NCBI RefSeq assembly: GCF_004010195.1
Contig: NC_057719.1
Span: 5,146,412 to 5,210,411, forward strand
Length of the DNA: 64,000 bases
Direction of reading: 5' to 3'
DNA from: Chiloscyllium plagiosum
Lineage: Eukaryota
Part shown: positions 1 to 63,357 of the stretch, one piece after another
How the letters are laid out: each line of letters begins with the position of its first letter
How positions within the stretch are numbered: position 1 is the stretch's first letter
The notes under the pieces: model-generated
The model's input: the letters and a program-made list of their open reading frames with translations, nothing else
Databases searched by the model: none
What the model was told of the DNA's origin: nothing
Made by a program: the position numbers and the translations under genes

Positions 1-350
1 TGCCTATCTTCCTTTCCACCTATCCACTCCACCCTCCTCCCTGACCTATCACCTCCATCCCCATCCCATACACCCATTGTACTCTTTGCTATCTTCCCCC
101 ATCCTCCTCCCTGACCTATCACCTTCATCCCCATTCCATTCACCTATTGTACTCTATGCTACCTTCTCTCCACCCCCCACCCCCCTCTCATTTATCTCTC
201 CACTGCAGGCTTCCTGCCTCTATTCCTGATGAAGGGCTTTTGCCTGAAACGTCGATTTTCCTACTCCTCGGATGCTGCCTGACCTGCTGTGTTTTTCCAG
301 CATCACTCTAATCTAGATTCTGGTTTCCAGCATCTGCAGTCCTTGATTTT
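1..350 (+). mobile_element. Penelope-like-element-derived unit (family A) with minimal hammerhead-like core and longer upstream C/T-rich flank
   Basis: CTGATGA(226-232)-A-GGGC-TTTT-GCCT-GAAAC-GTC(251-253), followed by the family A body (GGATGCTGCCTGACCTGCTG...CAGCATCTGCAGTCCT). Confidence 0.7.
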
Positions 351-365
351 ATCCTCTGCTGGCGA

Positions 366-540
366 TTAGAGTCAAGAGTGGGGTGCTGGAAAAGCACATA
401 GGTCAGGCAGTATCCGAGGAGCAGGAGAATCGACGTTCGGGCAAAAGCCTTTCCTGATGAAGAGCTGATGCCCGAAATGTTGATTCTCCTGCTCCTCGGA
501 TGCTGCCTGACCTGCTGTGCTTTTCCAGCACCACACTCTA
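366..540. mobile_element. Family A fold-back (inverted) element, degenerate hammerhead-like core on + arm
   Basis: Inverted arms AGAGTG...GCTGGAAAAGCAC / GTGCTTTTCCAGCACCACACTCT; CTGATGA at 454-460, GAAA at 474-477. Confidence 0.7.
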
Positions 541-599
541 GAGTCTATATTTGTGCACTCCCTTGGCTCCAGTTCACCTCATCATCAAATGCTAAAAAA

Positions 600-720
600 A
601 AGTCATCTGGACTCGAAATGTTAGCTTGCTGTCTCTCCATGGATGCTGTCTGACCCGCTGTGATCTGCAGCATTTGTTGTTTTCAGGACAGATTCCAGCC
701 TCTGCAGTCATTTGCTCCTA
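600..720 (+). repeat. Fragment of related family C (also at 40220-40377)
   Basis: GACTCGAAATGTTAGC...TCTCCATGGATGCTGTCTG...CAGATTCCAGCCTCTGCAGT, shared with 40220-40377. Confidence 0.5.
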
Positions 721-1009
721 TACTTTGGGTGTATGAAGGTTTAGGTTTAACATCTCATCCAAAAGATTGTAACTTTGGCAGTGCAGCACTCCCTCAGTGG
801 GAGTATTGAAGGCTGTTTATAAATGCCGGTGCTTTCTGTTGTGTTCAAACATCTTAATTAGTCGTTTGGCAACCGATTACTGGCATTGAGCTCTCCTGGA
901 GGCAAGAACAGCCTGCTTGGTATCATGGGCATGAACAGGTTGCAGCCATCTTGGGGACTGCCATCACTTCCTTGCTGAGGAGGAGAGCAGGCAGCTTTGA
1001 GAGAAAACT

Positions 1010-2330
1010 GGAAATTATAGACTGGTTAGCCTGGTGTCAGTAGTTGGGAAAATAATAAGAGACCATTATAAAAGATTTGATAGCAGAACCCTTGGCAAAC
1101 AGTGACAGGACTGGGCAGAGACAGAATGGATTTACAAAAGGGAAATCATGCTTAACAGATTCTTTGAATTCTTCGAGGATGGAACTGATAGAGTCAATAA
1201 GGTGGACCAGCGGATGTGGCTTATTTGGATTTTCAGAAGATTGTTGATCAGGACCTACTTAAAATGACAACACATGGGATGAGGGCAGTGTGCGGAGATT
1301 GATAGAGAACTGGTTGTCAGACAGGAAACAAGGAGTAGGAATAAGTGAGTCATTTTCTGATGGCAGGCAGCCACGAGAAGTGTATCACAGGGCTCAGTGC
1401 TTGGACCCCAGCTGTTCACAATATTGTTTAATGATTTAGGTGAGGAAACTAAATGTAATGTCTCCAAGTTTACTGATGACACAAAGCTGGGTGGGAGGGT
1501 GAACTGTGAAAGGATGCAAATGTGATTTGTGTTGTGGTTTGGACAAGTTGAGTGAGTGGGCAAATGCTTGGCAGATGAAGTATAATGTGGATAAATGTGA
1601 GGTTTTCCACTTTGGGAGCAAAAACAGGAAGGCAGATTATGATCTGAATGGTGACAGATTGGGAAAGGGAGAGGTGCAATGAAACCTGAGTGTCCTTGTA
1701 CACCAGTTGCTGCAGCAGGTAGTGAACAAGGCAAATAGAGCATTATTGTTCAAATCCAGAGTACAGGAGCTGGGATTTATTGCTGCAATTGTACAAGGCC
1801 TTGGTGAGACCACACCTGGAGCACTGTTTGCAGTTTTGATCTCCTTATCTGAGCAAAGATATTAAAGCTAATGCTTATCAGACTATTTCCTGGAATTGGC
1901 AGGGCTAACGTATGTAGACTGAATCATTTCAGATGATATTCACTTGTATTTAGAAGGGTGAGTGGTGAACTCACAGAAACCTTTAAATTCTAACAGGACT
2001 AGACAGAATAGATGTAAGAAGGATATTCCCAAATACTTGGAAGTCCAGAACCAGGGGATCATAGTGTAGGGACTCGGGAGTAGGCCATTTCCGACTGAGA
2101 TGAGATGTCTTCAGCCAGAGAGTGGTGAGTTTGTGGAATTCTCAGTCACAGAAAGCAGTTGAGAACAAAACATTGAATGGTTTCAAGAAGGAATTAGATA
2201 GAGTTCTTAGGGCTGAAGGGCTCAAAGAGTATGGGGAGAAAGCCGAAAGTGGGAGGATCAGCTACGATCATATTGAATGACAGAGCAGGCTTGAAGGGCC
2301 TACTCCAGCTCCCATTTTCCATGTTTCTGT
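1010..2330 (+). mobile_element. Decayed CR1 (HER1-like) LINE, RT region to 3' end
   Basis: Frameshifted RT motifs such as QGSVLGPQLF, SKFTDDTKL, KCEVFHFG and LVRPHLE. Confidence 0.85.
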
Positions 2331-5315: not shown

Positions 5316-6614
5316 ATTTAGGAATAAGGAAATAATTTGTGTGCAGGGGTTTTCCAAGGCAGTGATAGATAGCTGTGTGCAAAGAGAAATTGGGGGGGGT
5401 GGCGGATGTTTGGTATCAGAGTCAAGATTAGAATGCTGCTGGAAAAGCACAGCAGGTCAGGCAGCATCTGAGGAGCAGGAATTGTTATGTTGTGGGAAGG
5501 TGATGGGATATTGGAGATGATGATAGGTAGATTGGAGGGGATGGAGTATGGGGGAGATGATGCACAGAAATGGAGATATCTACGGTAAGGAGTTATCCAG
5601 TTAGGACAGAGATGAGGAGGAATTTCTTCGTACAACGTGTAATGAATCTATGGAATCCACCTAATCCGCACATCTATGGACTGTGGGAGGAAACCGGAGT
5701 AAACCCACACAGACACGGGAAGAATGGGCAAACTCTACACAGTCACCTGAGGATGGAATCGTACCCGGGTCCCTGGCACCATGAGGCAGCAGTGCTAACC
5801 ACTGAGCCACCATGCTGCCCCTTAGTGACATACTTTGTTTTATAATGCTCCTGTTAAGCGCTTTTGTTGTGTTAAAGGCAAAGTAAAATTGTTGGATGAG
5901 ACCATCCTGACTTACAATGTCACCGCCATCTCCACGTCTTTGTTATTTTCAGCTGACTGAAATCACTGAAGCTATTGGAACACTATACATTATGTCTTCA
6001 CGGCAGTGTCTTTGTTACCTCCTAAATGATTCTGCAGTAGTCAAAGTGTATTTTACCAACAGCATTTTATTTACACTCTGATGCTGCATACAGTGTTAAA
6101 AGGTATGGCACTGGAAAAGCACAGCAGGTCAGGCAGCATCCGAGGAGCAGGAGAGTCGACATTTTGAGCATAAGCCCTTCATTATTCCTGATGATCTCCA
6201 GCATCTGCAGTCCTCGCTTTCTCCTCATTGATGTTGCATACAGTCATTGAGCTACACTAGTTCAGGGTGTTTCCTCTATTAGGTTTCCCTTACCTCTCTG
6301 TCCTAGTCATGGGATGATACATCACCATTCTACCAGGAACCTGTGGGCTGATTCTATTAAACCATTACCCCACAGGCAACAAGAGCAGGTCTGAGTCTAA
6401 ATCAATATCTCTGAAATCTCAAGCATCGCAGCTCTGTAAGGACTCACCAAAATGTGAACTTATTACCTCTTCTGGGCAACTAGGGTGGACAATAACTTGA
6501 CTTTGCCAACATCACCTATCGTTGTAACAATGCTGCTCCTTTAACAAGGTTATATTGTCCTTGGCTTTGTAGAGGGTTGTAAAGGCAAAGGTTCTGATAT
6601 TTCTGGAAATATCT
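5102..6614 (+). repeat. Copy 1 of ~1.5-kb near-identical direct duplication (copy 2 at 22931-24442)
   Basis: Direct comparison; matching ORFs at 5570 and 23399 (offset 17829). Confidence 0.95.
6098..6227. mobile_element. Family A fold-back element, internally deleted (duplicated at ~23926-24053)
   Basis: Minus arm GCACTGGAAAAGCACAGCAGG...GCCCTTCAT joined to CCTGATGA and the tail TCTCCAGCATCTGCAGTCCTCGCTTTCTCCT. Confidence 0.7.
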
Positions 6615-8092: not shown

Positions 8093-8306
8093 GTGTTGAA
8101 AAATGTGTTGCTGGAAAAACACAGCAGGCCAGGCAGCATCCGAGGAGCAGGAGAATCGACGTTTCGGGCATAAGCTCTTCTTCAGGAACCTTATGCCCAA
8201 AACGTCGATTCTCCTGCTCCTTGGATGCTGCCTGGCCTGCTGTGTTTTTCCAGCAACACATTTTTCAACTCTGGTCTCCAGCATCTGCAGTCCTCACTTT
8301 CTCCTA
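8093..8306. mobile_element. Family A fold-back element with 14-bp TSD
   Basis: TSD GTAATGTACTTCTA at 8079-8092 and 8307-8320; inverted arms; minus-strand core CTGAAGA...GAAACGTC. Confidence 0.85.
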
Positions 8307-8378
8307 GTAATGTACTTCTACTCAGTGAATCTTAACAAGAAAAGGCGCTTGTCTTAAACAAGATGTAGTTTAATCCAA

Positions 8379-8492
8379 GAGAAAGTGAGGACTGCAGGTG
8401 CTGGAGAGTCAGAGTCAAAATCACAGCAGGTCAGGCAGCAGCCAAGGAGCAGGACAGTTGATGTTTTGGGCATAAGTCCTTCATCAGGAATG
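8379..8492 (-). mobile_element. Family A single-arm copy
   Basis: GAGAAAGTGAGGACTGCAG...CCTTCATCAGGAATG; degenerate direct repeats flank it. Confidence 0.7.
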
Positions 8493-8730
8493 CCTGTTGT
8501 TTAATACAGGCTAGCAACTAATTATAGATTACACTGATCAGATGGACTTTGTTACTAAGATGTTGAGGAGACCTAAAACAAGGGTTTTCACTCTTCACTC
8601 TGAATCTGTTTTGCTTTCCTCCCATCCATATTTGTACGACATAATCACGTTATAATTTGGTCACCAAAGTTAATTCTTTCATGACCATTGACATATACCA
8701 TAAGAACATTAGATATATGATCTGAAGTAG

Positions 8731-9014
8731 GGATTAGAGTGTTTCTGGAAAAGCACAGCAGGTCAGACAGCATCCAAGGAGCAGGAAAATCGATGTTTTG
8801 AGTAAAAGTTCTTCATCAGGAATTCCTCCACTATCACCTGATGAAGGAGCGGCGCTCCGAAAGCTAGTGCTTCCAAATAAACCTGTTGGACTATAACCTG
8901 GTGTTGTGTGATTTTTAACTTTGTACACCCCAGTCCAACACCGGCATCTCCAAATCATGACCACTCTAATCTAGGCTCTGATCTTCAGCATCTGCAGTCC
9001 TCACTTTCGCCTAG
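8731..9014. mobile_element. Family A element with 12-bp TSD, carrying a nested family B unit
   Basis: TSD GATCTGAAGTAG at 8719-8730 and 9015-9026; unrelated sequence at ~8825-8963 in the centre. Confidence 0.8.
8835..8869 (+). ncRNA. Minimal type-I hammerhead ribozyme-like motif (family B)
   Basis: Stem I CAC/GTG; core CTGATGA; extra A; stem II GGAGC-GGC-GCTCC; GAAA; palindromic AGCT stem III; predicted cleavage after CTA (8866). Confidence 0.75.
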
Positions 9015-16199: not shown

Positions 16200-18170
16200 T
16201 TCCAGAGCTCATCGTTAGCCTCTAGCTTGTTTTCTTCACTATACTGCTCTTTTAAAACATTCTCCCCTGCCTTGTCCATCCTTTCCTCCAACAATACTTA
16301 TAAGGAACTTGGATCTTTGATAGTGCTGGGAAATCCTAATCAGCTGCCTTCTGGCCTGATCTCCTCAGAAGGTACCTCCTGTATCTTTCCCTAGTTTCCC
16401 TCCTGTTTCCCCTCAGACCCTCTCCAAGCTCATTTTATTCATTCAATCTACCTTCTTGATCCTACTCTCACTGAACTGATAACATCCAATATCTTTCTTG
16501 GTCGCTATCACAGCCACTATTGTAATTAGTTCTCTCTCTTCAAAAGTTGTCTCTCTCTGTCTCTCTCTATCTCTCTCTATCTCGCTCTATCTCTCCTTCA
16601 ACTCTGCTGTCAATACTTCAGTCACACCAAACAAAAAAAGCTCTTAACCCTGATCCCCATCACCCAACCATATTCCCCCATTGCCAACCTGCCTATCCTT
16701 TCAAAGATCTTGGGATGTCACCCCACCAATTCATTCCCATGATTTGAATCCCTCCAATAAGGTTTCTGGCCCATGACAGGACCAAATAGCTCTTATCTAA
16801 GTAGCAAATGATATTCTCATTGTTGTGATGAAGGTGAGCTTTCGCTCTTTGTCCTCTTGGTCCAGTCTTCGGCCTTTGACATGGTTGACCATTAGGAGAC
16901 AGCGAGGACTGCAGATGCTGGAGATCAGAGTCTAGAGTGTGGTGCTGGAAAAGCACAGCAGGTCAGGTAGCATCCGAGGAGCAGGAGAGTTGATGTTTTG
17001 GGCCGGAGCCCTGATGAAGGATACTGTCTGACCTTGCTGTGCTTTTCCAGCAACACACTCTCAACTCGCAGTTGACCATTACCACATCTTCAGTGCCTCT
17101 TCACTGCAGCCCAGTGGAACTGCTCTCCTACTCCATTCTCATCTGTTTAATTAATTGTGATGTGTTCTCTCTCCACACCATTTCCTCTGGAGTTCCCTCA
17201 AGAATCCACTATTCGTCTCCTCCTATTTCTCATCTACATTCCATCCCTCAATGACATCATCCAAGGGCATGGTGTTCCTTTCCCCATGACCTCCTTCCAC
17301 ATCCAGGTCCACCTCTCTTGGTTCCTCCACTGTTACTGAATGATCAGATTGCTTCCCAGACATCCAATACTGGGTGAGCTGACATATCTTTCAATTAAAT
17401 ATGTGGGACATCAAAGTAACTGTCTTCAATCTCTGTTCTACACTCTTTTCACTGGCAACTTACTCCATCTGTGAGCCCGGCAGATACTTAACCAATCCGT
17501 TCTCAATCTTGGTGTCAAATCTAACCTTGAGATGAACTTCCAACTTCATATGTGTGTCATCACTAAGACCACCACTTCCCATTTCTGTAACATCACCTGC
17601 CTTCTTTCCTCTCTCAGTTCATCTGCTGCTGAAACCCTCATTGTGCCTCTTGGGATTGGCTAACTCCGGCACACTCCTGGCTGCTCTGTCATATTCTTTC
17701 CTCTGTAAACTTAAAGTCCTTCCAAATCTCACAGTAAATTCCATTCCCCTACCGTTCCTATCCTTGCTGACCTGCATTGTCAAACCACATTTGCATTTTA
17801 AAATGCTATCCCTGTCTTCAAAGTGTCTGTAACCTTGTCCCTCCCCATCCGTGTTGCCTACCGTCACCCTCCCAGCTCTCTGCCTGGCTCTAACTTGGGC
17901 CTTTTGACTATCCCAGATCTCAATCACCTTCGGTAGCCATGCCAACAGTTACCTGGGCCCTGAGCTCTGCAATTCTCTCCCTAACCTTCTCCACATCGTT
18001 CTCACTCCACAGTCATTGAAACCTACCCCTTTGACCAAGCTTTTGGTCACCTGTCCTAATATCACTTTTGTCATTCTTTGCCATGTTTTGTTTTATGTTT
18101 CAATGAGGCACCTTGGAAGTTGTCACTTTTTGCAAGGTGATATATCAATGCAGGTTGATGTTGTAGTAAA
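16200..18170 (+). mobile_element. Old, highly diverged L2-like LINE remnant
   Basis: C/T-rich strand; remnants such as SSGVP and LNDIIQGHGVPF; L2-like 3' end TATATCAATGCAGGTTGATGTTG. Confidence 0.5.
16895..17070. mobile_element. Family A fold-back element with 11-bp TSD
   Basis: TSD GTTGACCATTA at 16884-16894 and 17071-17081. Confidence 0.8.
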
Positions 18171-18640
18171 TGTTATGGGAATATTATTCATTAAGCATGA
18201 AATTCTCACTTTGTTTTGGGCATTTTTTCTCCTTCAGTCATCAACGATCATTCATCTGAACGCTGTGTATCGAGTTTACTTCATTTACGGCCCATTCAAT
18301 GTGAAACGTTCCTCCAATGTAATTGTTTCCCTGCAGCTGGAAATAGTTGACCCTAACCTTCCTCATTAAGGAATTTGGCAGGCTGCCTAGTCCTTCAAGC
18401 ACAGGAACAACAGCCAGGAAATGGCCTGCTTTAACTCTCCATACTCCCCCCCTCCCCCTGCAGGGAGGTGGACTGGCTTCTGTTCAACATTCACCTAGAC
18501 TGAGGTGTGGGAACATGGCTCTAGGAGGACCATAGGGTGAGGGGATTCACATTGCTAAGTCCCTCCCAATTGTTATTTCCCTCAACCTTTGCTCCCAGCA
18601 ATGGGGGAGGGAGGGGGAGGTGGGGTCAGAATGTCCTTTT

Positions 18641-18772
18641 AGGAGAAAGTGAGGACTGCAGATGCTGGAGATCAGAGTCGAGAGTGTGGTGCTGAAAAAG
18701 CACAGCAGGTCAGGCAGCATCCGAGGAGCAGGAGAATCGACATTTCGGGCAAGAGGCCTTCATCGGGAATGA
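18641..18772 (-). mobile_element. Family A single-arm copy
   Basis: AGGAGAAAGTGAGGACTGCAGATGCTGG...CCTTCATCGGGAATG. Confidence 0.75.
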
Positions 18773-18869
18773 GGCTAACCTCTCGGGGGATGTCCTCTTG
18801 TTTTATTCAGATGCCTTCTGTTCAGTGTTCAATACAGGTGTATTTTGTAGTGGAGAAAATATGAAGATG

Positions 18870-19900
18870 AATGTTAGAATCGATCAGAAATGAAGCAATA
18901 AATGGTCTCTTGGAGCAACTGATTGGATTTGGCCTAGTCAGCATGGATTAGTGAGTGGAAAATTATGTTTGATGAACTGGTTGAAGAATTTTGAAGGGAG
19001 TTAACAGATGAGTTGACACATATGACTTTCAGAGCTGAAAATGTGTTGCTGGAAAAGCGCAGCAGGTCGGGCAGCATCCAAGGAGCAGAAGAATCGACGT
19101 TTTGGGCATGAGCCCTTCTTCAGGAATGAGCCCATTCCTGAAGAAGGGCTCATGCCCGAAACGTCATTCCTGAAGAAGGGCTCATGCCCGAAACGTCGAT
19201 TCTCCTGCTCCTTGGATGCTGCCTGACCTGCTGCGCTTTTCCAGCAACACATTTTCAGCTCTGATCTCCAGCATCTGCAGTCCTCACTTTCCCCACATAT
19301 GACTTTCAACAAAGTTCCTCCCAAGAGATTGGTTAGAAACATTAAAGCACACAGAATAGGAGGCAAAGTGCTGGCATGGATTAAGCATTGACTATCAGAC
19401 AGAAAACAGAGAATAACGAATACATGAGTCATTCTCACATTGACAGACTGTGACTAGTGGGGTACCACAAGGATCAGTACCCCAGCCCCAGCTGATCAAA
19501 ATATAGATCAATGATTTGGATCTGGGGAATGAACATTTCAATGTTTGTGGATGATACAAAACTGAGCAGGAACGTGTGTTGTGATGAAGAAGTAAAATGT
19601 TTTCAAAAAGATTTTGACAGGCTCAGTGAATAGGAAAGAAGATGGCAGATGGAATACAATGTGGAAAATGTGAGATTATTCATGATGGTAGGAAGACCAA
19701 TTGTGCAGGATATTTCTTAAATAGTAAGAAGTTAGATAGTGTAGATGTCACAAAGGTGTCCTTGTCAATAGGTCATTGAAGGCTAACATGCAGGTGCAGT
19801 GAGCTGGAAGGCTAATGGAATGTTAGCCTTTATCGCAAGAAGATTTCAGTACAGCAGCAGTGAAGGCTTGCTTCATTTGTATAAGAGCCTGATTAGACTG
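18870..19900 (+). mobile_element. Decayed CR1 RT fragment, interrupted by a family A element
   Basis: Remnants of TSGVPQGSV, DDTKL and WQMEYNVE. Confidence 0.7.
19032..19293. mobile_element. Family A fold-back element with tandem hammerhead-like cores and 15-bp TSD
   Basis: TSD CACATATGACTTTCA at 19017-19031 and 19294-19308; 32-bp tandem repeat 19134-19165/19166-19197. Confidence 0.9.
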
Positions 19901-22290: not shown

Positions 22291-22932
22291 GTCATAGAGT
22301 CATAGAGATGTACAGCATGGAAACAGACCCTTTGGTCCAACTGCCCATTTCAACCAGACATCCCAACTCAATCTAGTCCCACCTGCCAGCACCCGGACCA
22401 TATCCCTCCAAACCCTTCCTATTCATATACACATCCAAATGCTTCTTAAATGTTGCAATTGTACCAGCTTCTACCACATCCTTTGGCAGCTCATTCCATA
22501 CACGTACCACCCTCTGCGTGAAAAAGTTGCCCCTTAGGTCTCTTTTATATCTTTCCCCTCTCACCCTAAACCTATGCCCTCTAGTTCTGGACTCCCCGAC
22601 CCCAGGGAAAAGACTTTGCCGATTTACCCTACCCATGCCCCTCATCATTTTGTAAACCTCTATAAGGTCACCCTTCAGCCTCCGACGCTCCAGGGGAAAC
22701 AGCCCCAGGCTGTTCAGTCTCTCCCTGTAGCTCAGATCCTCCAACCCTGGCAACATTCTTGTAAATCTTTTCTGAACCCTTTCAAGTTTCACAACATCTT
22801 TCCGATAGCAAGGAGACCAGAATTGCACGCAATATTCTAACAGTGGCCTAGCCAATGTCCTGTACAGCTGCAACCTGACCTCCCAACTCCTGTACTCAAT
22901 ACTCTGACCAATAAAGGAAAGCATACCAAATG
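22291..22932 (-). mobile_element. Young CR1 (HER1-like) 3' segment
   Basis: Open ORF2 C-terminus AFGMLSFIGQ...RPLLEYCVQFWSP...GPGAGRWD; (CTCTATGA)n tail. Confidence 0.95.
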
Positions 22933-37347: not shown

Positions 37348-37569
37348 ACACGTAGAATTTGGCCAAGCTCATGCCCGAAACGTCGATTCTCCTGCTCCTT
37401 GGATGCTGCCTGACCTGCTGCGCTTTTCCAGCAACACATTTTCAGCTCAGGTCAGGTTATGCCAACCAAGAGTCTGTCGGGAAAATACTTCAAACCACAT
37501 TCCAGTGACTCAGCAGAAAAACACAAGGCAGTGCTGAGGGACTGCCTCACTGTCAGAAGCTCTCTCAAG

Positions 37570-42650: not shown

Positions 42651-45334
42651 TTGGCTTGTCTAGAATAATGCAATGTGACTTTATTAAAGCATGTAAGATT
42701 TTTAGAAAGCTTGACGGGGTGGATATGGATAGGTCGTTTCCCCTATGGGATAATCGCAGATCAGAGGGCAGAGTCTCACAATAAGGGGTAACAAATTGTA
42801 GATGGCAATGAGGGGAAATGGTCTTTTGGTGAAGAGGAGAAGTTAAAAATAAAATTAACTTTGTGAAGCCAGATGGAATGAGATTACAGCTCTGAGCTCT
42901 GTAATCAAAAGAACTTGCATTTATATAGCACCTTTAATGTGGTGAACTATTCCAGGAGTCTTCAAAAGAGCATTGTGAAAAAAAAGGCACTGAAGGAAAT
43001 ATTAGAACATGCTTCGTCAAATAATAGGGTTTTATAGAGTATCCTTTTATTTCTTTGATGGGATGTGGATGTGTGGGGAGTTGGATAATGGGATGAGGTT
43101 ACAGAATTGGGGTGGCAGTGGGGAATCTGAAATGACGCGAGTTATGAATAGAGGCATTGCAAGGGCAAGAGTTAACATAGGCCACTGAGAAAGCAGTGAG
43201 AGATAAATGGGACTGGGTGTGAATTAGGTTTCTGGGCAGCCAAAGGACATAAGCCATGAACTTGTCCCTTCCGAGGCATTATCTTCCTGACTAGGGTCAG
43301 CATTTGGTTCAACTCCGTACCAGCCCAGAGTCAGTGACCTATAGCAGGGCACCCAGTCCAGGGATATAACGTAAGGGCATTTTGTTATTGGGGCACAGAC
43401 CTCGAAATGAACCATTTTTTTTGCCAAAGAGAATACATTAGTGGTTTAAGGTATACACAAAATGTACTTGCATTTATATAGCACCTCTGGCATGGTAAGA
43501 TACTTAAGAACCTAAAAAAATGTTCAATGACAGAAAATATTTTCTCCAACACATCATGAGGGGCAGAGTCCAACATGCAACTGTTTATAAAGAATAATTC
43601 ACCCTCACCCCCTTCTCCATCCTCCTGCGAGGCCCCATTAAAACACTCATTTATTTTGTCATGACACAAGGGAATTGAACCTCAGGGCTGCTGACCTCAG
43701 CAGTTAAGTATCACATTGGGTGGCACCTTTCCTGAAATAAACCACCAGAGAGTTGTTATAGACTCGAGTAAATCATTGCCAAACCCAACCACACTCCCTT
43801 TGGGCTAAAGAATCAGAACAAATGTGAAGAAATTTAAGAAGTCTAAGCTTTTGCTAGATGACGTTCCCTCACCTCAGTGGGTAACCAAGGTGACTAGGCA
43901 ACCAATCCATTGCTCAACCCTATGTAGGCAGCAGAACTCTGTAATTTAACCTCCCACAGACTCATAATGGGTGAGTAACGTATATTAGAACAATCTGGCA
44001 AAAAAAATGCATTCTTTCATTTGTACAAAACAATAAAAGTTCCTCCTGAAACCATTCAATGATTTTTGGCTTGGGCTGAAATTGATACTGATAGAGTCAT
44101 AGAGCACAGAAACAGGCCATTTGGCCCACTGTGTCTATGTCAACGACAAACATCAAACTGCATATAAAAACCAAAAGAACTACAGATTCTGTAAATCAGA
44201 AACAAAAACAGAAATTGCTGGAAAAGCTCAGCAGGTCTGGCAGCATCTGCGGAGAGAAATCAGAGTTAACGTTTCGGTCTCTGATCTCCCCCCACAGATG
44301 CTGCCCGGCCATGCTGAACTTTTCCAGCGATTTCTATTTTTGTACCAAACTCCATATATCCTATTGACCTGCACTTAATCCATAGCCTACTAGCCCTGGC
44401 ATTTTAAGTGCTCATCCAGATGCTTCTTAAATGTAGTGAGAGTGCTTGCCCCCATTACCGTCTCAGGCCGCATAGTCCATCTTTCTCACTGGGTGATAGC
44501 AAAACACTCTCTGATCCTCTCGAAACCACTTACTCCTCACCTTAATCCAATGCCCTCTGGTACTGCCGAGAATTGTACCATCAATTTCATCTCACTGGGG
44601 ATGAAAACAAGAGGCATTGCCAGAATTTGGATTGGCTTAGACTTCCTCCTGAGGAGGATGGTGGACACAGTCCCACTGTACAAACTGGATTCTTCATTCT
44701 CTTGACAGCGCAGTGTCAGGTGAGCGCCATAGTGCTTCTTAATATTGCTCCATTGGTTGAGCAGGTCCATACAATGACCACAACAATCCCAGGTTCTATC
44801 TGGGCTAATGGAGGAAGCAGCAGCATTGTGTTAATACCTCTATGTTAGTCATCCAGAGGCAAAGGTTACCGCTGTGGGTACATACTTCAAATCCTGCTAA
44901 GCTAGATGGTGGAATTTAAGCTGAATTATATCATTAAATCAGTAATTATAAAATTATTCTGTCAATGATTGTTTCCATGAAGGGACAATATCTGCTTTCC
45001 CTACCTGGCATACTTGAGACTCCAGGTCCACAACAATATGATTGCCTGCCCCTCTGGAATGGCCTAGTGAAATACCATTCTGTTCAGTGGCACATGAGGC
45101 TGAGTGATCACTTTTGGTCTTGCGGTGTCATCCAAATCCCATGGGGAGGGTGGTAGAGCCCCTACCTCAGAGCCAGAAAGTCAGCATTCAAGTCCCAACC
45201 GCCCTAGAGATACATCATGCCATGTCTGACCAGATTGATGAAAAATGCCCTGTAACAGAAGAAATATAAGAAGTCTCCAGGCTGCACTGAACCATTCCAA
45301 CTCACTAAGGGTGGTTCTAGGGATGTTTTACTTA

Positions 45335-51366: not shown

Positions 51367-51590
51367 AAAGGAGAAAGTGAGGACTGCAGATGCTGGAGAT
51401 CAGAGCTGAAAATGTGTTGCTGGAAAAGCGCAGCAGGTCAGGCAGCATCCAGGGAACAGGAGAATCGACGTTTCGGGCATAAGCCCTTCTTCAGGATTCC
51501 TGAAGAAGGGCTTATGCCCGAAACGTCGATTCTCCTGTTCCCTGGATGCTGCCTGACCTGCTGCGCTTTTCCAGCAACACATTTTCAGCT
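51367..51590. mobile_element. Youngest family A element: perfect 93-bp inverted repeat plus one-sided tail, ~15-bp TSD
   Basis: Arms 51404-51496 and 51498-51590 are exact reverse complements; TSD CTTAAAGTTGACAAG at 51352-51366 and 51589-51603. Confidence 0.95.
51494..51533 (+). ncRNA. Minimal hammerhead ribozyme-like motif (family A type copy; mirror copy on - strand)
   Basis: CTGAAGA 51500-51506, A, GGGC-TTAT-GCCC, GAAA 51520-51523, ACGT palindrome, GTC triplet ending at 51527; short imperfect stem I. Confidence 0.7.
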
Positions 51591-52055: not shown

Positions 52056-52855
52056 TTGATTTATTTATTGTAATGTGCAGTTTGTTACAAAATACAGTGA
52101 AAAGCATTGCAGAGTGTTACTACTCTCTGATGGCATCTTAAAACATAGAAAAAATTATCTAAACATAGAATATTAAGACAGAAAAACGAAGAAATCACAG
52201 TCCTTCTTGTTAAGTGCTCCATCGTAGGCCATGGGACTAGTGGACAGCCATGTGTTCCCTTCACCATGCCACCACTGCTGGACCAAACGTCATCGCTCTT
52301 CAGCGCTATCCCATCTCCAAGGACATCCTCGCACCGCGAGTCATTGATGGACCTTGACAATGCCACCGGGTACCACATTAGTTCAAACTCATCTCCCACC
52401 CTCGCCGTGAGTCCCCATGGGCCCACCTTGCTGATGCAGAAGCTGCTGGTGCTGCAGGGTCTCATCATTCCTGATGAAGGGCTTTTGCCTGAAACGTCGA
52501 TTTTCCTGCTCCTCGGATGCTGCCTGATCTGCTGTGCTTTTCCAGCACCACTCTAATCTTGACTCTGATCTCCAGTATCTGCAGTCCTCACTTTCGCCTG
52601 CAGGGTCTCATACAAGGTCCGAATTCACATCTGTCTCTGTGAACCTGCGCCGGACGCAGACCCCACCGGGAACCCAAACTCACCTCCACAGCTGCACACC
52701 AGGAGTCTGGGCTGCTGGACCTACTCTCCACTGGCAATGCCATCGCTGCAACTGAACTCTTAATAGAAAGAAAATAAACAAGAGAAGAGAGAGAAAAAAA
52801 GCAAAAAGAAAAGTGGAGGAGCATTGGGACGCCCTCCTCCACCGCTATCTTACCA
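52056..52855 (-). mobile_element. Putative non-autonomous retroelement with Rex1-like 3' end
   Basis: 3' end resembles 29860-29900 (TTATTGT...CAGTGAAAAGC); 5' AAGATAGCGGTGGAGG; flanking CATTCCACA at 52047-52055 and 52861-52869. Confidence 0.45.
52466..52597 (+). mobile_element. Family A solo unit with 14-bp TSD
   Basis: TSD CTGCAGGGTCTCAT at 52452-52465 and 52598-52611; starts CATTC-CTGATGA. Confidence 0.9.
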
Positions 52856-52882: not shown

Positions 52883-52975
52883 GTTCCTGGTGAAGGGTTC
52901 CTGCCGTACGTCAGTTTTCCTGCTCCTTGGATGCTGCCTGACCTGCTGTACTTTTCCAGCACCACTCTAATCTTT
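52883..52975 (+). mobile_element. Degenerate family A solo unit
   Basis: CCTGGTGAAGGG...GGATGCTGCCTGACCTGCTG; flanked by ATTGTCTGT. Confidence 0.7.
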
Positions 52976-53869
52976 TAGATTGTCTGTAGCATCTACATGT
53001 GGGGACAGTTTTCTAAAGGACGGTACAGGCAAGGAATCAAACTAAAGGAAAACTTCACTAAAACTTAAATAAGACACTCCACTGTCCTGGATAGAACCGG
53101 AATGTACACAGCACAGCTTCTTGAATCACAGGATGTACATACAGAAGGAAACCATTCAGCCTATGAAGTCTGTGCTGACTATTATGATGGGGGAATCAGT
53201 CCTACATTCCATCTCTTTCCCCGTGATTATATTTTTCTCAAAATATCTTATGCAGTTCCTTTTTGAACTTTACTGTTGAGTCTATATCCATTACCCTAAT
53301 GGACAGTGCATTGAGAATCCTGACCATGTATTGTGTGATAATATTTATCCTCATGTCCCCTCTAGTTTTTGCTATGATCGTCATAAGTTTGTAGCCTAGG
53401 GTTTGTCAACTTTCAGCCATTGGAAACAGTATCTTTTATTTACTTTGTCTAATTCCTTCATAAGTCTAAATACTTCTATCAAATCTCTTCTTAGGCTTCT
53501 TTGCTGTAAGATGAACAGAGTATAAATCTATACTGGACCATTGCCCTGTGTATACAGTTAAGAAAGGCAGCTAGAAGCTGATTAGTTTGTTTAGGACATG
53601 GGCTCCTGTTTGGGAAGGATCAAGTGGAATAAACCACGTGAACCGAGTACTAAGACTGAGGTGCACTCATTTGGATCAACCTTTAAACTGAAGTCCTATC
53701 TATAACAACAATTTGGATTTGTATACAACTGTCAATGCAGTAAAAATCTCTGCACCAGGCCCCAAAGAAAGAAACCATCTGTTTAACAAGTTTCACAAGC
53801 ACGAGACGTTTGAAAGTATTGTAATGCCATTGAAGCACCTTTTTTTAAAATGTGTAGTCATGGTTGTAA

Positions 53870-54165: not shown

Positions 54166-54844
54166 ATAATTGACACAAGGGAACAGTAGCACAAGTGATC
54201 AAGTGCTTAGAAAAACAGGATTGATTTTTGAAACATTTTAAATGAGTGGAGAAAGCCACACAGTTTGAGGAGGACTTAGAAAGCTGAAGACTACCCCCCA
54301 TCAATGCCAAACAACCCCAACTATCAGCAATCCCAGAGTTTCTTGGGAGAGACAGAGGCTTGGACTAAAGATCAAGATGAATAAAAGGTCAAGGAATTAT
54401 ATAATTCTTTACTGACTTCCTTTTGTGTTGAAAGCTAGTCCAGGAGATCACTTTAACCAGGATTTTTTTTTAAGCTGTTATTACACCCGGCTTTCACCTC
54501 TGGCCTAATTCACCTTTGAAAGTCTGCAGGGGCCCACACTAGCTCATTCTGACCATGGTTTTGAAATTGAAGAGAGGGCTTACATCCACCACAGCTCCAG
54601 TGAATGTTTAAAATCCCCCAATAATCCAGACCAAGATCTCACCCACCCATTGGCTTCTCAACTCTGGATGCTCCAGGAACTTTCATCACATGCCTTCACA
54701 CTTTGAGCTGCACTAACGCCAGCTTCCCATCACTGGTCTATTCTCCAGCTCTTCTGCTTTCCATGGTCAATTGTTCAGGCTCTCTATTATCCAGCTGGAT
54801 AAATCCTGATGGTTAGTGAAACCATTAGTTTCTTTTCCCTCAGT

Positions 54845-56090
54845 CGGAAATTGTGTGCCATTAACTTGTTTGAGTTTTTTGAAGAAATAACGAAGAGGAT
54901 TGATGAGGGCAGAGCAGTGGACGTGATCTCCAAGGACTTCAGTAAGGCATTTGGCAAGGTTCCCCATAGGAGTCTGTTTAGCAAGATTAGATTACATGGA
55001 ACACAAGGACAACTAGCCATTTGGGCGCAGAACTGGCTTGAAAGTAGAAGACAGAGGGTGGCAGTGGAGGGTTACCTTTCAGACTGGAGGCCTGTGACCA
55101 GTGGTGTGCCATACGGATCGGTGCTGGGTCCATTACTTTTCTTCATTTATATAAATGATTTGGATGTGAAGAATTGGAGATATGGTTAGTAAGTTTGCAG
55201 ATGACACCAAAATTGGAGGGGTAGTCGACAGCAAAGGTTACCTCAGAGTACATTGGGATCTTGTTCAGATGGGCTGGTGGGCTGAGGAGTGGCAGATCAA
55301 ATTTAATTTAGATAAATGTGAAGTGCTGCATTTTGGAAAAGCAAATCAGAGCAGGACTTAGACAATAAATGGTAGGTTTCTGAGGGGTGTTGCTGAACAA
55401 AGAAACCTTGGAGTGTATGTTTAGTTCCTTGAAAGTAGAGTCACAGGTGGACAGGGTAGTGCAGAAGGTGTTTGGTATGCTTACCTTTACTGGTCAGTGC
55501 ATAGATTGTAGGAGTTGGGAGTTCATGTTGTAGCTGTACAAGATATCGGTTAGGCTAATTCTGGAATACTGCGTTCAATTCTGGTCTCCCTGCTACAGGA
55601 ATGATATTGTGAGACTTGAAAGAGTTTAGAAAGATTTACAAAGATGTTGCCAGGGTTGGAGGGTTAGAGCTATAGGGAGAGATTGAATAGGCTGGGGCAG
55701 TTTTCCCTGGAGCATTGGAGGCCTAGGGGTGACCTTATAGAGGTTTATAAACTCATGAGGGGCATAGATAGGGTGAATAGCCAAGGTCTTTTTCATGGAG
55801 TGGGAGTGTCCAAAACTAGAGGGGATAGGTTTAATGTAAGAATGGAAAGATTTAAAAGGGTAAACGTTTTCAAGTAGAGGGTGGTGCGTATATGGAATGA
55901 GCTGCCAGGGGAAGTGGTGGAGGCTGGTACAATTATAACGCTTAAAAGGCATCCGGATGTGTATATGAATAGGAAGCGTTTAGAGGGATATGGATCAAGT
56001 GCTGGCAAATGGGACTAGATCAGTATAGGACATTTGGTCGGCCTTAATTTGGACTGAAGAGTCTGTTTGCATGCTATACAGTTCTATGAT
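54845..56090 (+). mobile_element. CR1 LINE, RT to 3' end
   Basis: NLFEFFEE...[11 protein letters not shown]...[21 protein letters not shown]. Confidence 0.95.
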
Positions 56091-56233: not shown

Positions 56234-56560
56234 GAACAAAATGTTTATTTCTCAGCAATACTCAGGTCCTGCACCAAACGATTAAAAATTATTGAACAGT
56301 ATGTTTATTGTTGATGTTTTGATCACAGAGGCAAATGATTGTTAAATTTGATTGTTAAGTTTGAAAGTGAGCAACCAGTCAGTACACACAATCACACTTA
56401 ACAATCATTTGTCCCTGTGATCAAAAGATCAACAACAAACATACCCTTCAATAATTTTTAATTGTTTGGTGCAGGACCTGAGTATTGCTGAGAAATAAAC
56501 ATTTTGTTCAATCTTTTCATCTTGCATTCATTAGACCAATTACAAAAATACCCATGTAAA
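56234..56560. mobile_element. AT-rich fold-back element (family E), ~110-bp arms plus one-sided tail
   Basis: GAACAAAATGTTTATTTCTCAGCAATACTCAGGTCCTGCACCAAAC (56234...) inverted at ...56509. Confidence 0.8.
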
Positions 56561-58283: not shown

Positions 58284-58475
58284 TGAGGAGAAAGTGAGGT
58301 CTGCAGATGCTGGAGATCAGAGCTGAAAATGTGTTGCTGGAAAAGCGCAGCAGGTCAGGCAGCATCCAGGGAACAGGAGAATTCCTGAAGAAGGGCTTAT
58401 GCCCGAAACGTCGATTCTCCTGTTCCCTGGATGCTGCCTGACCTGCTGCACTTTTCCAGCAACACATTTTCAGCC
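58284..58475. mobile_element. Family A fold-back element with a single unpaired core, 14-bp TSD
   Basis: TSD AAGGTGCAAAACTT at 58270-58283 and 58476-58489; core 58385-58412. Confidence 0.9.
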
Positions 58476-59759
58476 AAGGTGCAAAACTTGACCTACTCTG
58501 GGAAATAAGGCCGGGCAGGTGACTGAGGTGTCAGTGGGGGAGCACTTTGGGGCCAGCGACCATAATTCCATTAGGTTTAAAATAGTGATGGAAAAGGATA
58601 GACTAGATCTAAAAGTTGAAGTTCTAAATTGGAGAAAGGCCAAGTTTGACGGTATTAGGCAAGAACTTCGAAAAGCTGATTGGGGGCAGATGTTCGCAGG
58701 TAAAGGGAAAATGGCCTTCAGAAATGAGATAACGAGAATCCAGGGAAAGTGTATTCCTGTCAGGGTGAAAGTAAAGGCTGGTAGATATAGGGAATGCTGG
58801 ATACAAAGAAATTGAGGGTTCGGTTAAGAAAAAGGAAGGTATAGACAGGATAGATTGAGTGAATCCTTAGAGTATAAAGGAAGTAGGAGTATACTTAAGA
58901 GGGAAATCAAGAGGGCAAAAAGGGGACATGAGATAGCGATGGCAAATAGAATTAAGGAGAATCCAAAGAGTTTTTACAAATACATTAAGGACAAAAGGGT
59001 AACTAGGGCGAGAATAGGGCCCCTCAAAGATCAGCAAGGCGGCCTTTTTGTGGAGCCGCAGAAAATGGGGGAGATACTAAATGAGTATTTTGCATCAGTA
59101 TTTACTGTGGAAAAGGATATGGAAGATATAGACTGTAGGGAAATAGATGACGACATCTTGCAAAATGTCCATATTACAGAGGAGGTGGTGTTGGTTGTCT
59201 TGAAACACATAAAAGTGGATAAATTCCCAGGACCTGATCAGGTATACCCTAGAACACTGAGACTGATTAGCAAGGTTAGATCTCATGGAATACAGGGAGA
59301 ACTAGCCATTTGTATACAGAACTGGCTCAAAGGTAGAAGACAGAGGGTGACGGTGGAGGGTTGTTTTTCAGACTGGAGGCCTGTGACCAGTGGAGTGCCA
59401 CAAGGATCGGTGCTGGGTCCTCTATTTTTTGTCATTTACATAAATAATTTGGATCTGAGCATAAGAGGTACAGTTAGTAAGTTTGTAGATGACACCAAAA
59501 TTGAAGGTGTAGTGGACAGTGAAGATGGTTACCTTAGATTACAACAGGATCTGGACCAGATGCGCCAATGGGCTGAGAAGTGGCAGATGGAGTTTAATTC
59601 AGATAAATGTGAGGTGCTGCATTTTGGGAAATCAAATCTTAGCAGGACTTATACACTTAATGGTAAGGTCCGAGGGAGTGTTGCTGAACAAAGAGACCTT
59701 GGAATGCAGGTTCATAGCTCCTTGAAAGTGGAGTCGCAGGTAGATAGGATAGTGAAGAA

Positions 59760-59983
59760 NNNNNNNNNNNNNNNNNNNNNNNNNNNNNNNNNNNNNNNNN
59801 NNNNNNNNNNNNNNNNNNNNNNNNNNNNNNNNNNNNNNNNNNNNNNNNNNNNNNNNNNNNNNNNNNNNNNNNNNNNNNNNNNNNNNNNNNNNNNNNNNNN
59901 NNNNNNNNNNNNNNNNNNNNNNNNNNNNNNNNNNNNNNNNNNNNNNNNNNNNNNNNNNNNNNNNNNNNNNNNNNNNNNNNNNN
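59760..59983. other. Assembly gap (N run)
   Basis: Ns in sequence. Confidence 1.
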
Positions 59984-60719
59984 AGCTGCCAGAGGAAGTG
60001 GTGGAGGCTGGTACAATTGCAACATTTAAAAGGCATTTGGATGGGTATATGAATAGGAAGGGTTTGGAAGGATATGGGCCAGGTGCTGGCAGGTGGGACT
60101 AGATTAGGTTGGGATATCTGGTCGGCATGGACGGGTTGGACCGAAGGGTCTGTTTCCATGCTGTACATCTCTATGATTCTATGACTATGCTACTGCTGCT
60201 GGCTGATTTAAAATGGAAATGATATGGTAGTGGAAAAAACTGAAAGGGCTCAACAGAATTATCAGTGACCGAGAGAGGCGACAGCTTAATGTTCATTTAG
60301 AACTGTTCTGATTGGAAAGACACAATAATTTAGGGTAGTATTAATGTCCCCATGGACAGATTTGGTTGATTATAAAGAGTCAACACAGATTTCTCATGGG
60401 AAAATTATGTTTAACTAACTTGCTAGAGATTTTTCATAAGGTAATACAGAGGGTTGATGAGTTGGAGGCTGTAAGTGTGATCTACATGGATGTCCAGAAG
60501 ACATTTGATCCAGTGCTACACAACAGACACAGAGAGCCAATGGCTTAATGCTATTATCAGTAAATTGTTAACCCACAGACTCAGAGACTCCATAGTTTGG
60601 AGAGAGAGCTTTAGTTTGAGTTTTGGACAGTCCTGTGAAGTCCTTGGAATAGGATGGCTACATGGACCAGCATTCCTGAGAAGGGAAGGATGTATTTACC
60701 TCCTCATTTGCTCTTCAAT

Positions 60720-61500: not shown

Positions 61501-61904
61501 TTATATTCTGCCCATGGGTGAGGAAGTCTTTCAATTCATCCACAAGTATTTTCTAAAATATAAATAAGAGATCTGCTGCACAATGTATTTTGTAGTCAAA
61601 TCAAATGTAGGATGAATGACAGGCATTTCAATGGATTAATAACGTAATAGTATTGACGAAAAGAGAGGCTAGCCAGTAATAAAACAAAGAACTGAAATAT
61701 ACAAAGAAACACAGAAATGGCTGGAGAAATGCAGTAAGTCTGGCAGCATTGTAAAGAGAAACCAGAGTTAACATTGAACCCTTCTTCAGAACAATCCAGT
61801 AATGTATTTTTGTGTGAGTTCTCTTAACACAATGCAGCAACATGACAGGCAGAGGGTGAGTACAATGAATGAATGATAGGTGATTGTGACTGGAAATTAT
61901 GAGG

Positions 61905-61940
61905 CTTTTTCTCAGTTTCTCTGTGTCTCTTTCCCTCCAG
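61905..61940 (+). promoter_or_regulatory. Splice acceptor for the GPCR coding exon
   Basis: Polypyrimidine tract TTTCTCTGTGTCTCTTTCCCTCCAG ending at 61940, 135 nt before the ATG. Confidence 0.7.
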
Positions 61941-62075
61941 CTAGAAAATCTGCAATGGAAAAGAATTTGAAGAAATAATATCAGGACAAGTTTGATCCAA
62001 CAAGCAAGGCCATAGCTGGGAATCCAATGCACAAATAAGTTTATTTTGAAAGAAAATTTTGAGTTGTGTTGAACG

Positions 62076-63104
62076 ATGAGCAACTGTACTGTCGACCACA
62101 GTATCCACCAGATCCTGTTTCCCGCCGTCTACATTGGGGTCTTCATCATTGGCCTCCCGATTAACCTGCTGTCCCTGTATCACAGCTACCTACAGATCAG
62201 GCAGAAGAATGAGCTGGGAATCTATCTCTGTAATCTGACCATCTCAGACCTGTTGTACCTCCTTTCCTTACCTTTGTGGATTCAGTACATGCTGCAGCAC
62301 GATGACTGGCAATATTCTCGGGAACTTTGCATCTTCAGCGGTCTGCTCCTCTACCAGAATATTTACATCAGTATTGGCTTCCTCTGCTTCATTGCCATTA
62401 ATCGCTTCCTTGTTGTGGCTTACCCTCTGAAATTTAAATTCATACACAGCAGGAAGGCAGCTTTGCTCATCAGTATTCTCATCTGGCTCAAGGAGATAGC
62501 TGTCTGCACCATTTACATGGGCTCCAAGGTTCTCAGTAAAGACGAGGGGAATGATACCCTGTGTTTTGAACATTATCCTCTGCGCCTAAAGGACAGATAT
62601 TTAAATATTTACAAACTCTCCATTGGCTTCAGCCTCCCTTTGATATTATTGATCTACTCTTACTATAAGGTGTTGAGAGTTGTGCACAAAAGCCATGGAC
62701 TTGAAAGACAGCGGAAATTAAGAATAAAAAAATTGGTATCTGGGACAATCATCATTTTCCTGGCTTGCTTTGCCCCTTATCACATTTTCCTGATGGTTCG
62801 AAGCATATTTGAGTATGACTGTCCCTTTGCTGACAGTATTTTTGAGGTTTACCATTTTGGGCTCCTGCTGATGAGCTTAAACTGTGTGGCCGACCCTGTT
62901 TTGTACTGTTTCATATCACAGAGTTCCCAGAGCTGGTTAGCCAGGTTCCTGGATCCTGTTATCAATCTGCTTCCTTGTGGGAAAAAAGAAGAAATTGTGG
63001 CCCTTGAGATGAAGGGCAGCTCACCGCTTACAACTAAAACAAGTCTGTTACCTCAAAGACACCAGAAACAAGAAAAATATGAATACCAACACTCAAAGGT
63101 GTGA
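62076..63104 (+). CDS. GPR68: Proton-sensing class A GPCR, GPR68/OGR1-like (342 aa; ortholog versus paralog unresolved)
   Basis: Intact ORF with 7 hydrophobic segments; GPR68-like motifs CTVDHSIHQ, NELGIYLCNLT, LQHDDW, CFEHYP, CFAPYH and NCVADPVLYCF. Confidence 0.9.
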   Translation: MSNCTVDHSIHQILFPAVYIGVFIIGLPINLLSLYHSYLQIRQKNELGIYLCNLTISDLLYLLSLPLWIQYMLQHDDWQYSRELCIFSGLLLYQNIYISIGFLCFIAINRFLVVAYPLKFKFIHSRKAALLISILIWLKEIAVCTIYMGSKVLSKDEGNDTLCFEHYPLRLKDRYLNIYKLSIGFSLPLILLIYSYYKVLRVVHKSHGLERQRKLRIKKLVSGTIIIFLACFAPYHIFLMVRSIFEYDCPFADSIFEVYHFGLLLMSLNCVADPVLYCFISQSSQSWLARFLDPVINLLPCGKKEEIVALEMKGSSPLTTKTSLLPQRHQKQEKYEYQHSKV

Positions 63105-63315
63105 ACTGTTAATTAAACTTCTCCTGGTCTTTCAGTAAAATCCACACACATAGATGTGCTGGGGTCAGAGGACAAAGTATGAAGTGTAAAGGAGGCTTAA
63201 TTCAAGAGCGTTGCAATATAAAAGCAAAGTACTGTAGCTGCTAGTAATCTAAAATAAAGACAGTGAATCCCGGAGAATCTCAGCAGCTCTGGCAGCATTT
63301 TTATACAGAGAAACA

Positions 63316-63357
63316 GAGTTAACGTTTCGAGTCTGATGTAGCTCTTCATCAGAACTC
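63316..63357 (-). ncRNA. Minimal hammerhead-like motif (family C/D) downstream of the GPCR stop codon
   Basis: Reverse complement GAGTT-CTGATGA-A-GAG...CTC-GAAA-CGTT-AACTC: 5-bp stem I, AACGTT palindrome. Confidence 0.65.

Follow-up and report, generated by a model that had tools for sequence, protein, structure and literature searches.

The stretch of Chiloscyllium plagiosum DNA analysed here (64,000 nucleotides of contig NC_057719.1, hereafter the window) contains short repeats, family A, built around a hammerhead-like core. The question that they raise is whether such repeats form a mobile system of their own or are pieces of a larger element. The initial annotation took them to be about 20 short insertions of a distinct non-autonomous system, mobilised by a Penelope-like reverse transcriptase.

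Family A repeats in the window

Pattern searches of the window returned 17 matches to the family A core (up to three substitutions) and 15 to its tail (up to four). Family A occupies 22 loci in total, two of which lie inside duplicated segments that are 97–99% identical (5387–5686 and 23216–23515; 6092–6391 and 23920–24219), leaving 20 independent loci, the number first estimated. These are given below with strand (a point where none is assigned), followed by related family B.

1–356 (+): 3′ UTR and pLTR of a longer PLE copy, core 226–253
357–537 (.): head-to-head pair without full tail, core 454–481, TSD not found
5415–5481 (−): partial arm, about +38 to +103; duplicate at 23244–23310
6095–6228 (.): fold-back remnant, TSD 16 bp (1 mismatch); duplicate at 23928–24052
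8095–8306 (.): fold-back, tail on + arm only, TSD 16 bp (1 mismatch)
8375–8494 (−): solo tailed copy, start −1, TSD 11 bp (1 mismatch)
8731–9011 (.): composite in a single 15-bp TSD: family A arm, family C hammerhead unit (8830–8962), family A tail
16895–17070 (.): fold-back, tail on − arm, TSD 11 bp
18638–18789 (−): solo tailed copy, short upstream extension, TSD 7 bp (weak)
19032–19293 (.): fold-back, internal 32-bp repeat of +1 to +32 at 19134–19165, TSD 15 bp
25970–26100 (+): solo tailed copy, TSD 11 bp
30721–30930 (.): fold-back, tail on + arm, TSD 14 bp (1 mismatch)
34016–34232 (.): fold-back, tail on − arm, TSD 14 bp
37121–37347 (.): fold-back, tail on + arm, TSD 15 bp
37367–37448 (+): untailed arm starting at +15, TSD not found
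37577–37662 (−): older untailed arm, TSD not found
51367–51588 (.): young fold-back, two intact cores (51467–51494 minus; 51500–51527 plus), tail on − arm, TSD 15 bp
52466–52597 (+): solo tailed copy, TSD 14 bp
52885–52976 (+): older untailed solo copy, TSD 11 bp (1 mismatch)
58284–58475 (.): fold-back, + arm from +1, − arm from +34 with tail, TSD 14 bp
44167–44345 (.): fold-back of related family B, TSD 13 bp (1 mismatch)
Near 27099, 38519, 40293 and 63352: further family B cores

Inverted pairs, or fold-backs, make up 11 of the 20 independent loci, and single arms account for roughly half of the window loci. The initial description of mostly tail-to-tail pairs with a central core is therefore correct for the pairs only by a bare majority and incorrect for their orientation: in the element's own sense the arms lie head-to-head, with the 5′ edge of the core at the centre, and often one of the two cores is truncated. 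The full tail is confined to one arm in 10 of the 11 window fold-backs, as had been claimed. TSDs were found at 15 of 21 intervals tested, 14 of them 11–16 bp long, close to the 11–15 bp proposed, and one of 7 bp; among random intervals, 1 of 300 reached at least 11 bp. Not all copies are short, as had been supposed, since the one at 1–356 is the end of a longer element. Upstream of the window, beyond a 3.3-kb run of N, lies PLE coding sequence with a DKG motif on the same strand, and the two probably belong to one element.

The hammerhead motif and the Penelope-like ORF

With the A of ATTCC numbered +1, the hammerhead core of the unit spans +5 to +32, two 3′ end sites lie near +95 and +130, and the ORF starts near +167. 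Of the features of a minimal hammerhead, CUGANGA, the extra base, stem II, GAAA, a loopless palindromic stem III and NUH are present. A descriptor for minimal hammerheads with loopless stem III matches 12 sites in the window and none in each of 30 Markov-generated control windows; an Rfam scan gave no hammerhead-family match up to E = 1, only chance miRNA hairpins. Judged by its sequence, the motif belongs with the minimal type-I hammerheads of PLEs and is a predicted ribozyme, as first proposed. Counted by sequence-pattern search, the exact core occurs 86,254 times in the genome (43,103 + 43,151), and the reversed core, used as a control, has 0 matches. This is about ten times the maximum given for minimal hammerheads of metazoan PLEs (about 9,000 in Xenopus; Cervera and de la Pena 2014, PMC4209133), relative to which stem II of family A is short, with only 4 bp, and stem I is weak in the main subtypes. 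Within family A, the supposed excess conservation of the core over downstream sequence was not found among 276 arms, in which core positions are mostly 98–100% conserved and those from +50 to +80 mostly 95–100%.

The initial annotation had called for copies attached to an ORF with reverse transcriptase (RT) and GIY-YIG motifs, and for the main subtypes such copies exist. Just upstream of the window (L013), a GIY-YIG frame reads into the unit, and in all 14 loci fetched for long endonuclease frames the unit lies just 3′ of the endonuclease match. One broken copy, L083, has the order pLTR-ORF-UTR-pLTR, with RT and then GIY-YIG motifs in one frame and the unit repeated directly on the ORF strand (2425–2542 and 5808–5892). 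The Pfam GIY-YIG model (PF01541) scores 24.6 bits against L074 (cut-off 22.6) and falls below the cut-off for L083. A CX4CxxC linker, the CCHH residues and the DKG motif are seen in translations of L074, L083 and L013; the Neptune/Nematis type is defined by a CCHH endonuclease, a CX2-5CxxC linker and a DKG motif (PMC8557442). Moreover, the tail runs on into the ORF leader at 817 places genome-wide, and the ORF N-terminus was matched in 14 of 20 such loci fetched. Endonuclease sequence lies upstream of 5 of 95 A-TTAT cores, 1 of 31 A-TCAT cores and 20 of 40 T-TTTT cores, the last value being inflated by endonuclease-selected loci. None of the ORFs seen was both complete and intact, the apparently long 'open frames' proving to be largely runs of N, and a PDB sequence search gave 0 hits.

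Family A very probably represents the pLTR together with the 5′ leader of several EN+ PLE subfamilies, of Neptune/Nematis type by motifs rather than by tree. Because the main subtypes are ORF-linked, the tail continues into the leader and the fold-back junctions (see below) are nearly all different, we consider it just as probable that the short copies are stubs derived from PLE RNA rather than copies of a short master, although the master of the CCTGTG and TAAT subtypes is less certain. The same observations do not support the proposal of a distinct non-autonomous system, while mobilisation by a Penelope-like RT is upheld by the direct link to the ORF.

It is improbable, but deserves consideration, that one or more subtypes, notably CCTGTG, are truly non-autonomous, a short or internally deleted master RNA being mobilised in trans by the PLE protein. 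An ORF link was found for 0 of 25 CCTGTG and 0 of 10 TAAT sampled cores, and none of the CCTGTG copies matching the read-through pattern, of which there are only 4 genome-wide, matched the ORF N-terminus. Furthermore, pLTR sequences are described as able to act in trans (PMC3846280), and non-autonomous PLE derivatives are known (PMC8557442; bioRxiv 10.64898/2026.07.22.740005). However, these samples were chosen for short copies, and many long copies are interrupted by runs of N. One CCTGTG copy (L265) does lie downstream of endonuclease sequence, at 73.5% identity; two of the four read-through copies reach about 15 nt beyond the tail, and past the tail two CCTGTG copies carry leader letters common to other subtypes. 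In addition, the window showed no long arrays of tandem units, and just 666 close tandem junctions were counted genome-wide. A MITE or fold-back DNA transposon, by comparison, is scarcely conceivable. The copies are indeed short, very numerous, TSD-flanked and built of inverted arms, but the arms are unequal, TSD length varies between 7 and 20 bp, junctions change from copy to copy and solo arms are frequent in the window; the contiguity of the unit with the RT and GIY-YIG ORF excludes this class, in line with the initial warning against such a label.

Fold-back junctions and the ends of short copies

Close head-to-head junctions number 15,642 genome-wide. We examined 112 pairs, mostly from loci chosen by exact patterns and hence biased to young copies, and found 98 distinct junction types, which implies that each fold-back arises at insertion. 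One tailed and one untailed arm were combined in 83 of 97 scoreable pairs, compared with 49.8% expected (p = 1.6e-13), and the rule was broken in 14 of the 97. The 3′ ends are bimodal, with two end classes and one class per arm; a tailed arm was joined to a very short arm in 13 of the 112 pairs, and TSDs, mostly of 13–17 bp, were present in 55. The possibility that fold-backs supply a partner for hammerhead dimers was rejected by reasoning, since one core lies on each strand, and in an RNA reading through both arms the sense core would be trapped within a hairpin.

An insertion process that would produce such copies can be proposed. The PLE protein, probably a dimer, would make a staggered target cut of about 11–17 nt, and each target strand would prime reverse transcription, the two strands using different internal start sites. 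The cDNAs would extend towards the RNA 5′ end or stop early. Two cDNAs joined head-to-head via short microhomology would then yield a fold-back, and a single cDNA joined to the target would yield a solo copy; in all likelihood, short copies without the ORF are dead ends. The way in which cDNAs would be primed and joined is borrowed from a different PLE clade, represented by an anole PLE for which two internal RT start sites at the borders of the tail, the extension of both strands and a protein predicted to be a dimer are reported (PMC11167929).

In a profile of 208 unselected arms, 33 have their 5′ ends at +1 to +3, an accumulation at the initiator-like A that precedes the core by four bases, and only 2 start at the cleavage site (+33). 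Genomic ends thus fail to mark that site. This bears on a further alternative, that hammerhead self-cleavage sets the template and copies start or end at the cleavage site, by a retrozyme-like or circular RNA route, which we regard as quite unlikely, even more so than a non-autonomous master. In its favour, the motif structure is kept across families, with stems II and III changing together (CG in families A and B, GC in C), stem I reaches 4 bp in CCTGTG copies and 3 bp in family C, and the window copy at 19134–19165 ends exactly at the cleavage site. This 32-bp repeat was considered as a cleavage footprint and rejected, given that close tandem junctions break at scattered positions; an exact cleavage-site end rejoined at +1 was seen, by eye, in 0 of the first 100 of the 666. 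Moreover, stem I of the commonest subtypes consists of 2 bp, a U-U mismatch and 1 bp (the norm for type-I minimal hammerheads is about 4–5 bp), and the anole PLE is reported to insert in vitro without need for cleavage (PMC11167929). The hammerhead would then be inherited from the parent pLTR and not be what sets the ends of the short copies.

The base just before the +1 A is G in 57 of 100 cases, compared with 17 and 25 at neighbouring positions, an excess that hints at a cap footprint and with which a second subtype agrees weakly. A tentative reading, which we rate somewhat below even chances, is that many stubs are 'strong-stop'-like products of capped PLE mRNA, with a cap-copied G before +1. 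Transcription by Pol II would start at the initiator-like A, four bases 5′ of the hammerhead core, and the PLE dimer would sit near the 5′ end of one RNA, using a different one of two internal start sites for each target strand. The two cDNAs would run off the capped 5′ end, with the RT sometimes copying the cap as an extra base, before being joined head-to-head. If this is true, a single model would account for the tail on one side only, for the inverted 5′ copy and for the excess of tiny insertions among PLEs, and hammerhead stem I would lie at the very start of the mRNA. For hammerhead cleavage, RNA reads offered a weak test. A single-cell poly(A) run (X19), whose organism may not be that of the window, gave 2,760 reads on the unit in both orientations, 95% of which continue into unlike sequence; depth on the unit ranges from the hundreds to about 1,300, that at the ORF start is about 1–20, and no pile of starts or ends was seen in these reads, the cleavage site included. 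Run X20 gave no reads.

Relation to known elements

EN+ PLEs of the Neptune/Nematis type (Craig et al. 2021, PMC8557442; Arkhipova et al. 2013, PMC3846280) are described with a C-terminal GIY-YIG domain with CCHH, linker, DKG and pLTRs, as here, and also with heavy 5′ truncation, an adjacent inverted 5′-truncated copy with a head-to-head junction, a 30–40-bp tail often at one end only, and variable TSDs. Unlike canonical EN+ PLEs, the shark units are mostly cut to arms of 90–135 nt, with the exact core alone so numerous; numbers are given here for the one-tail-per-pair rule and for the sharp 5′ edge, in a clade set from motifs only. Poseidon of Anolis carolinensis (PAc; Frangieh et al. 2024, PMC11167929), the anole PLE mentioned above, likewise has a hammerhead in its pLTR and two internal RT start sites bounding the tail, and the portion of that paper available to us reports no reads ending at the cleavage site. 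However, PAc belongs to the Penelope/Poseidon clade and its ORF starts inside the hammerhead, whereas here the ORF start lies beyond the tail; the same portion describes RT start sites of PAc that are alike on both strands, and neither a pairing rule nor a cap footprint. Non-LTR retrozymes (Li et al. 2026, bioRxiv 10.64898/2026.07.22.740005) resemble family A in being non-coding, carrying a type-I hammerhead and being related to PLE pLTRs. Retrozymes are head-to-tail tandem repeats with a hammerhead per unit, whereas family A copies are scattered, stand alone or in head-to-head pairs between TSDs, and are contiguous with a PLE ORF; counted genome-wide at close spacing, the 666 tandem junctions of family A compare with 86,254 cores.

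The minimal hammerhead, the inverted truncated copy and the one-sided tail are thus already published PLE features. What is added here is the count of one tail per pair, the 5′ ends at an initiator-like A and the G excess before +1. As a class these repeats are ordinary, and they should be annotated as PLE stubs, not as MITEs or a new system. Nevertheless, a single genome with more than 15,000 junctions, each formed separately, provides a natural record of how PLEs prime and complete insertion, steps that are called unresolved in the available portions of the PLE papers cited, and the one-tail-per-pair rule and the possible cap footprint provide two predictions for the existing anole in vitro system.

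Hammerhead repeats in the window

Family A, the short and often fold-back repeats that carry a minimal hammerhead core, is borne out by several counts. As given in the initial annotation, the core occurs 17 times in the window and the tail (the 3′ part of ~35–40 nt) 15 times, and a minimal-hammerhead structural descriptor matched 12 sites, compared with 0 in 30 control windows. The exact core is present in 86,254 copies in the 3.56-Gb genome, where a control pattern gave 0. We counted 22 family A loci, or 20 once two in duplicated segments are dropped. Inverted pairs account for 11 of these 20 independent loci, fewer than "most" had implied, and the tail lies on a single arm in 10 of the 11, as had been described. 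The arms join 5′ end to 5′ end, which makes the pairs head-to-head rather than tail-to-tail as first stated. Target-site duplications (TSDs) are present at 15 of the 21 family A intervals tested; the 11–15 bp initially reported holds approximately for 14 of these (11–16 bp) and not for the remainder. Other features of the window are as follows.

5387-5686 / 23216-23515 and 6092-6391 / 23920-24219: duplicated segments, 17.8 kb apart, 97–99% identity, with two family A copies; either local duplication or an assembly effect
8731-9011: family A arm, family C hammerhead unit and family A tail within a single 15-bp TSD; possibly a template switch between two Penelope-like element (PLE) families within one insertion
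26978-27200, 44167-44345, 38519, 40293, 63352: hammerhead units of the related family B, with a GUU site and a longer stem II; this family, too, forms fold-backs
56234-56509: AT-rich inverted repeat without relation to family A, its 122-nt arms showing 93% complementarity; perhaps a genuine MITE
22373-23023, 24766-25173, 54803-55189, 58828-60102: fragments that we take, from their appearance, to be CR1-type LINE coding sequence
62073-63104, + strand: single-exon rhodopsin-family GPCR frame, 343 aa (Pfam 7tm_1, E 6.8e-46)

The family A hammerhead matches the minimal PLE motif as described in the accessible part of PMC4209133, including the extra base after A9 that had been noted. Families A, B and C share the core, and their stems II and III vary in concert, a sequence pattern that speaks for selection on the structure in the parent elements. 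The expected excess of core conservation over the flanks is not seen within family A, in which conservation of the core does not exceed that of the downstream leader. The commonest subtypes have a weak stem I, and the family B unit at 63352 has one of 5 bp. A window repeat ends at the cleavage site, but of the 666 close tandem junctions found genome-wide, the first 100 include no other case of this arrangement; the genomic ends give no sign of hammerhead cleavage.

Relation to Penelope-like coding sequence

At locus L013, some 5 kb upstream of the window, a GIY-YIG reading frame leads straight into a family A unit. When the genome was searched with this protein, 150 of the 119,025 first-look candidates were scored, and in all 14 loci fetched, which were picked for long frames, a family A unit lies just downstream of the endonuclease match. 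One locus (L083) has the full layout of unit, ORF with reverse transcriptase (RT) and endonuclease, pyrimidine-rich untranslated region (UTR) and unit, so the copies attached to an RT and GIY-YIG ORF that the initial annotation suggested seeking do exist. The frame carries a CX4CxxC linker and CCHH residues, with a DKG motif in L013; these are marks of the Neptune/Nematis type in the available text of PMC8557442, and such motifs point to a parent element of that type. The first copy in the window, at 1-356, includes the UTR; it probably represents the terminus of a long element that 3.3 kb of N interrupts. No intact PLE ORF was seen among the long frames examined, because most are filled with N. 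In the portions of the open literature covered, Repbase and Dfam aside, no account of such elements from cartilaginous fish turned up.

The tail of the short copies, or stubs, continues into the leader at 817 genomic places, and the ORF N-terminus was matched in 14 of 20 loci fetched among such copies. The ORF starts at +167 to +171 in four loci (+1 being the A of ATTCC), so the stubs are non-coding, as was initially noted. The same annotation took them for a separate non-autonomous system, a view that the link to the ORF and the variety of junctions do not sustain. Endonuclease sequence lies upstream of cores in the three commonest subtypes, and by eye count, 62 of the first 100 copies on the list whose +1 core is intact continue into the UTR. 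Close head-to-head junctions number 15,642 genome-wide; 112 sampled pairs comprise 98 distinct junction types, so each insertion makes its fold-back anew instead of copying a palindromic master. Family A stubs are not a separate family. It is improbable that the CCTGTG and TAAT subtypes are exceptions stemming from a deleted master: a link to the ORF start was not found among sampled cores, nor with a genome-wide read-through pattern for CCTGTG, but one CCTGTG copy sits downstream of endonuclease sequence. Arm-to-arm identity of 98–100% in 36 of 81 pairs, a sample that favours exact matches, suggests young insertions.

5′ ends and a possible cap footprint

Among 208 arms not chosen by pattern, 33 begin at +1 to +3 (11 per base, versus 0.02–0.8 per base from −11 upstream) and two at the cleavage site, +33. 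Of the 124 arms that reach +3, these 33 stop there and 58 go on to −20 or beyond, so longer templates are common too. In the GAAGAAG subtypes, genome-wide departures from the upstream sequence number 17,743 at +1, 17,497 at +2 and 7,678 at −1. Judged against the initiator consensus, +1 in long copies has an initiator-like context, being an A after a pyrimidine. Drosophila Penelope has an internal TATA-less promoter, according to the accessible part of PMC2377424.

In the first 100 copies listed, the base before +1 is most often G (57), with A in 27 and T in 16, and G at neighbouring positions is found in 17/100 and 25/100 (first 100 listed each, all by eye; Fisher p = 6e-9 and 7e-6, respectively). 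The available text of PMC11702581 interprets the additional G seen at junctions of full-length L1 copies as cap copying, and we tentatively consider, at somewhat less than even odds, that the G here is likewise the footprint of a cap copied by the RT from capped RNA. Alternatively, the sharp 5′ edge could be caused by RT stalling at structured or protein-bound RNA. Inspected singly, 90 of the 100 loci include many whose G is accounted for by the inverted arm, the TSD or short slips. Neither arm nor TSD explains the base in 34 hand-picked loci, and after removal of 10 slip-like cases it is G in 18 of 24. Among 16 solo copies flanked by an exact TSD of at least 9 bp, nine have no added base, and the single added base is G in four of five; we count it against cap copying that this cleanest class holds five cases. 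Also counted against it are the GATGAAG subtypes, with G in only 53/100 among G and A versus 43% expected (p = 0.03), and RNA reads, a weak test of the start site, in which no starts accumulate at +1. The open literature, as far as accessible, holds no report of a cap footprint in PLE insertions; PMC11167929 and preprint supplements, outside that scope, may bear on this.

In six solo copies (L173, L200, L206, L218, L227, L235) the target continues with AT or ATT directly after the TSD; the first bases of the unit thus provide microhomology at the 5′ junction. Five other loci (L089, L093, L096, L101, L104) extend ~60–110 nt beyond the tail, reaching the ORF start, and then pass into a second unit that begins at the core or close to it, which is what a template jump would give once the 5′ end has been reached.

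3′ ends and the one-tail rule

The 3′ ends are bimodal, at ~+80 to +100 and ~+125 to +135. With 15 of 112 pairs excluded for a very short arm, 97 could be scored: 83 have one arm of each 3′ end class, 10 have two tails and four have none, where independence would give mixed pairs in about half (p = 1.6e-13). In an anole PLE, the accessible text of PMC11167929 places the tail between two internal RT start sites, and describes both target strands as cut and extended, with a predicted protein dimer. The simplest reading of the one-tail rule would be that one RT start site is used per target strand.
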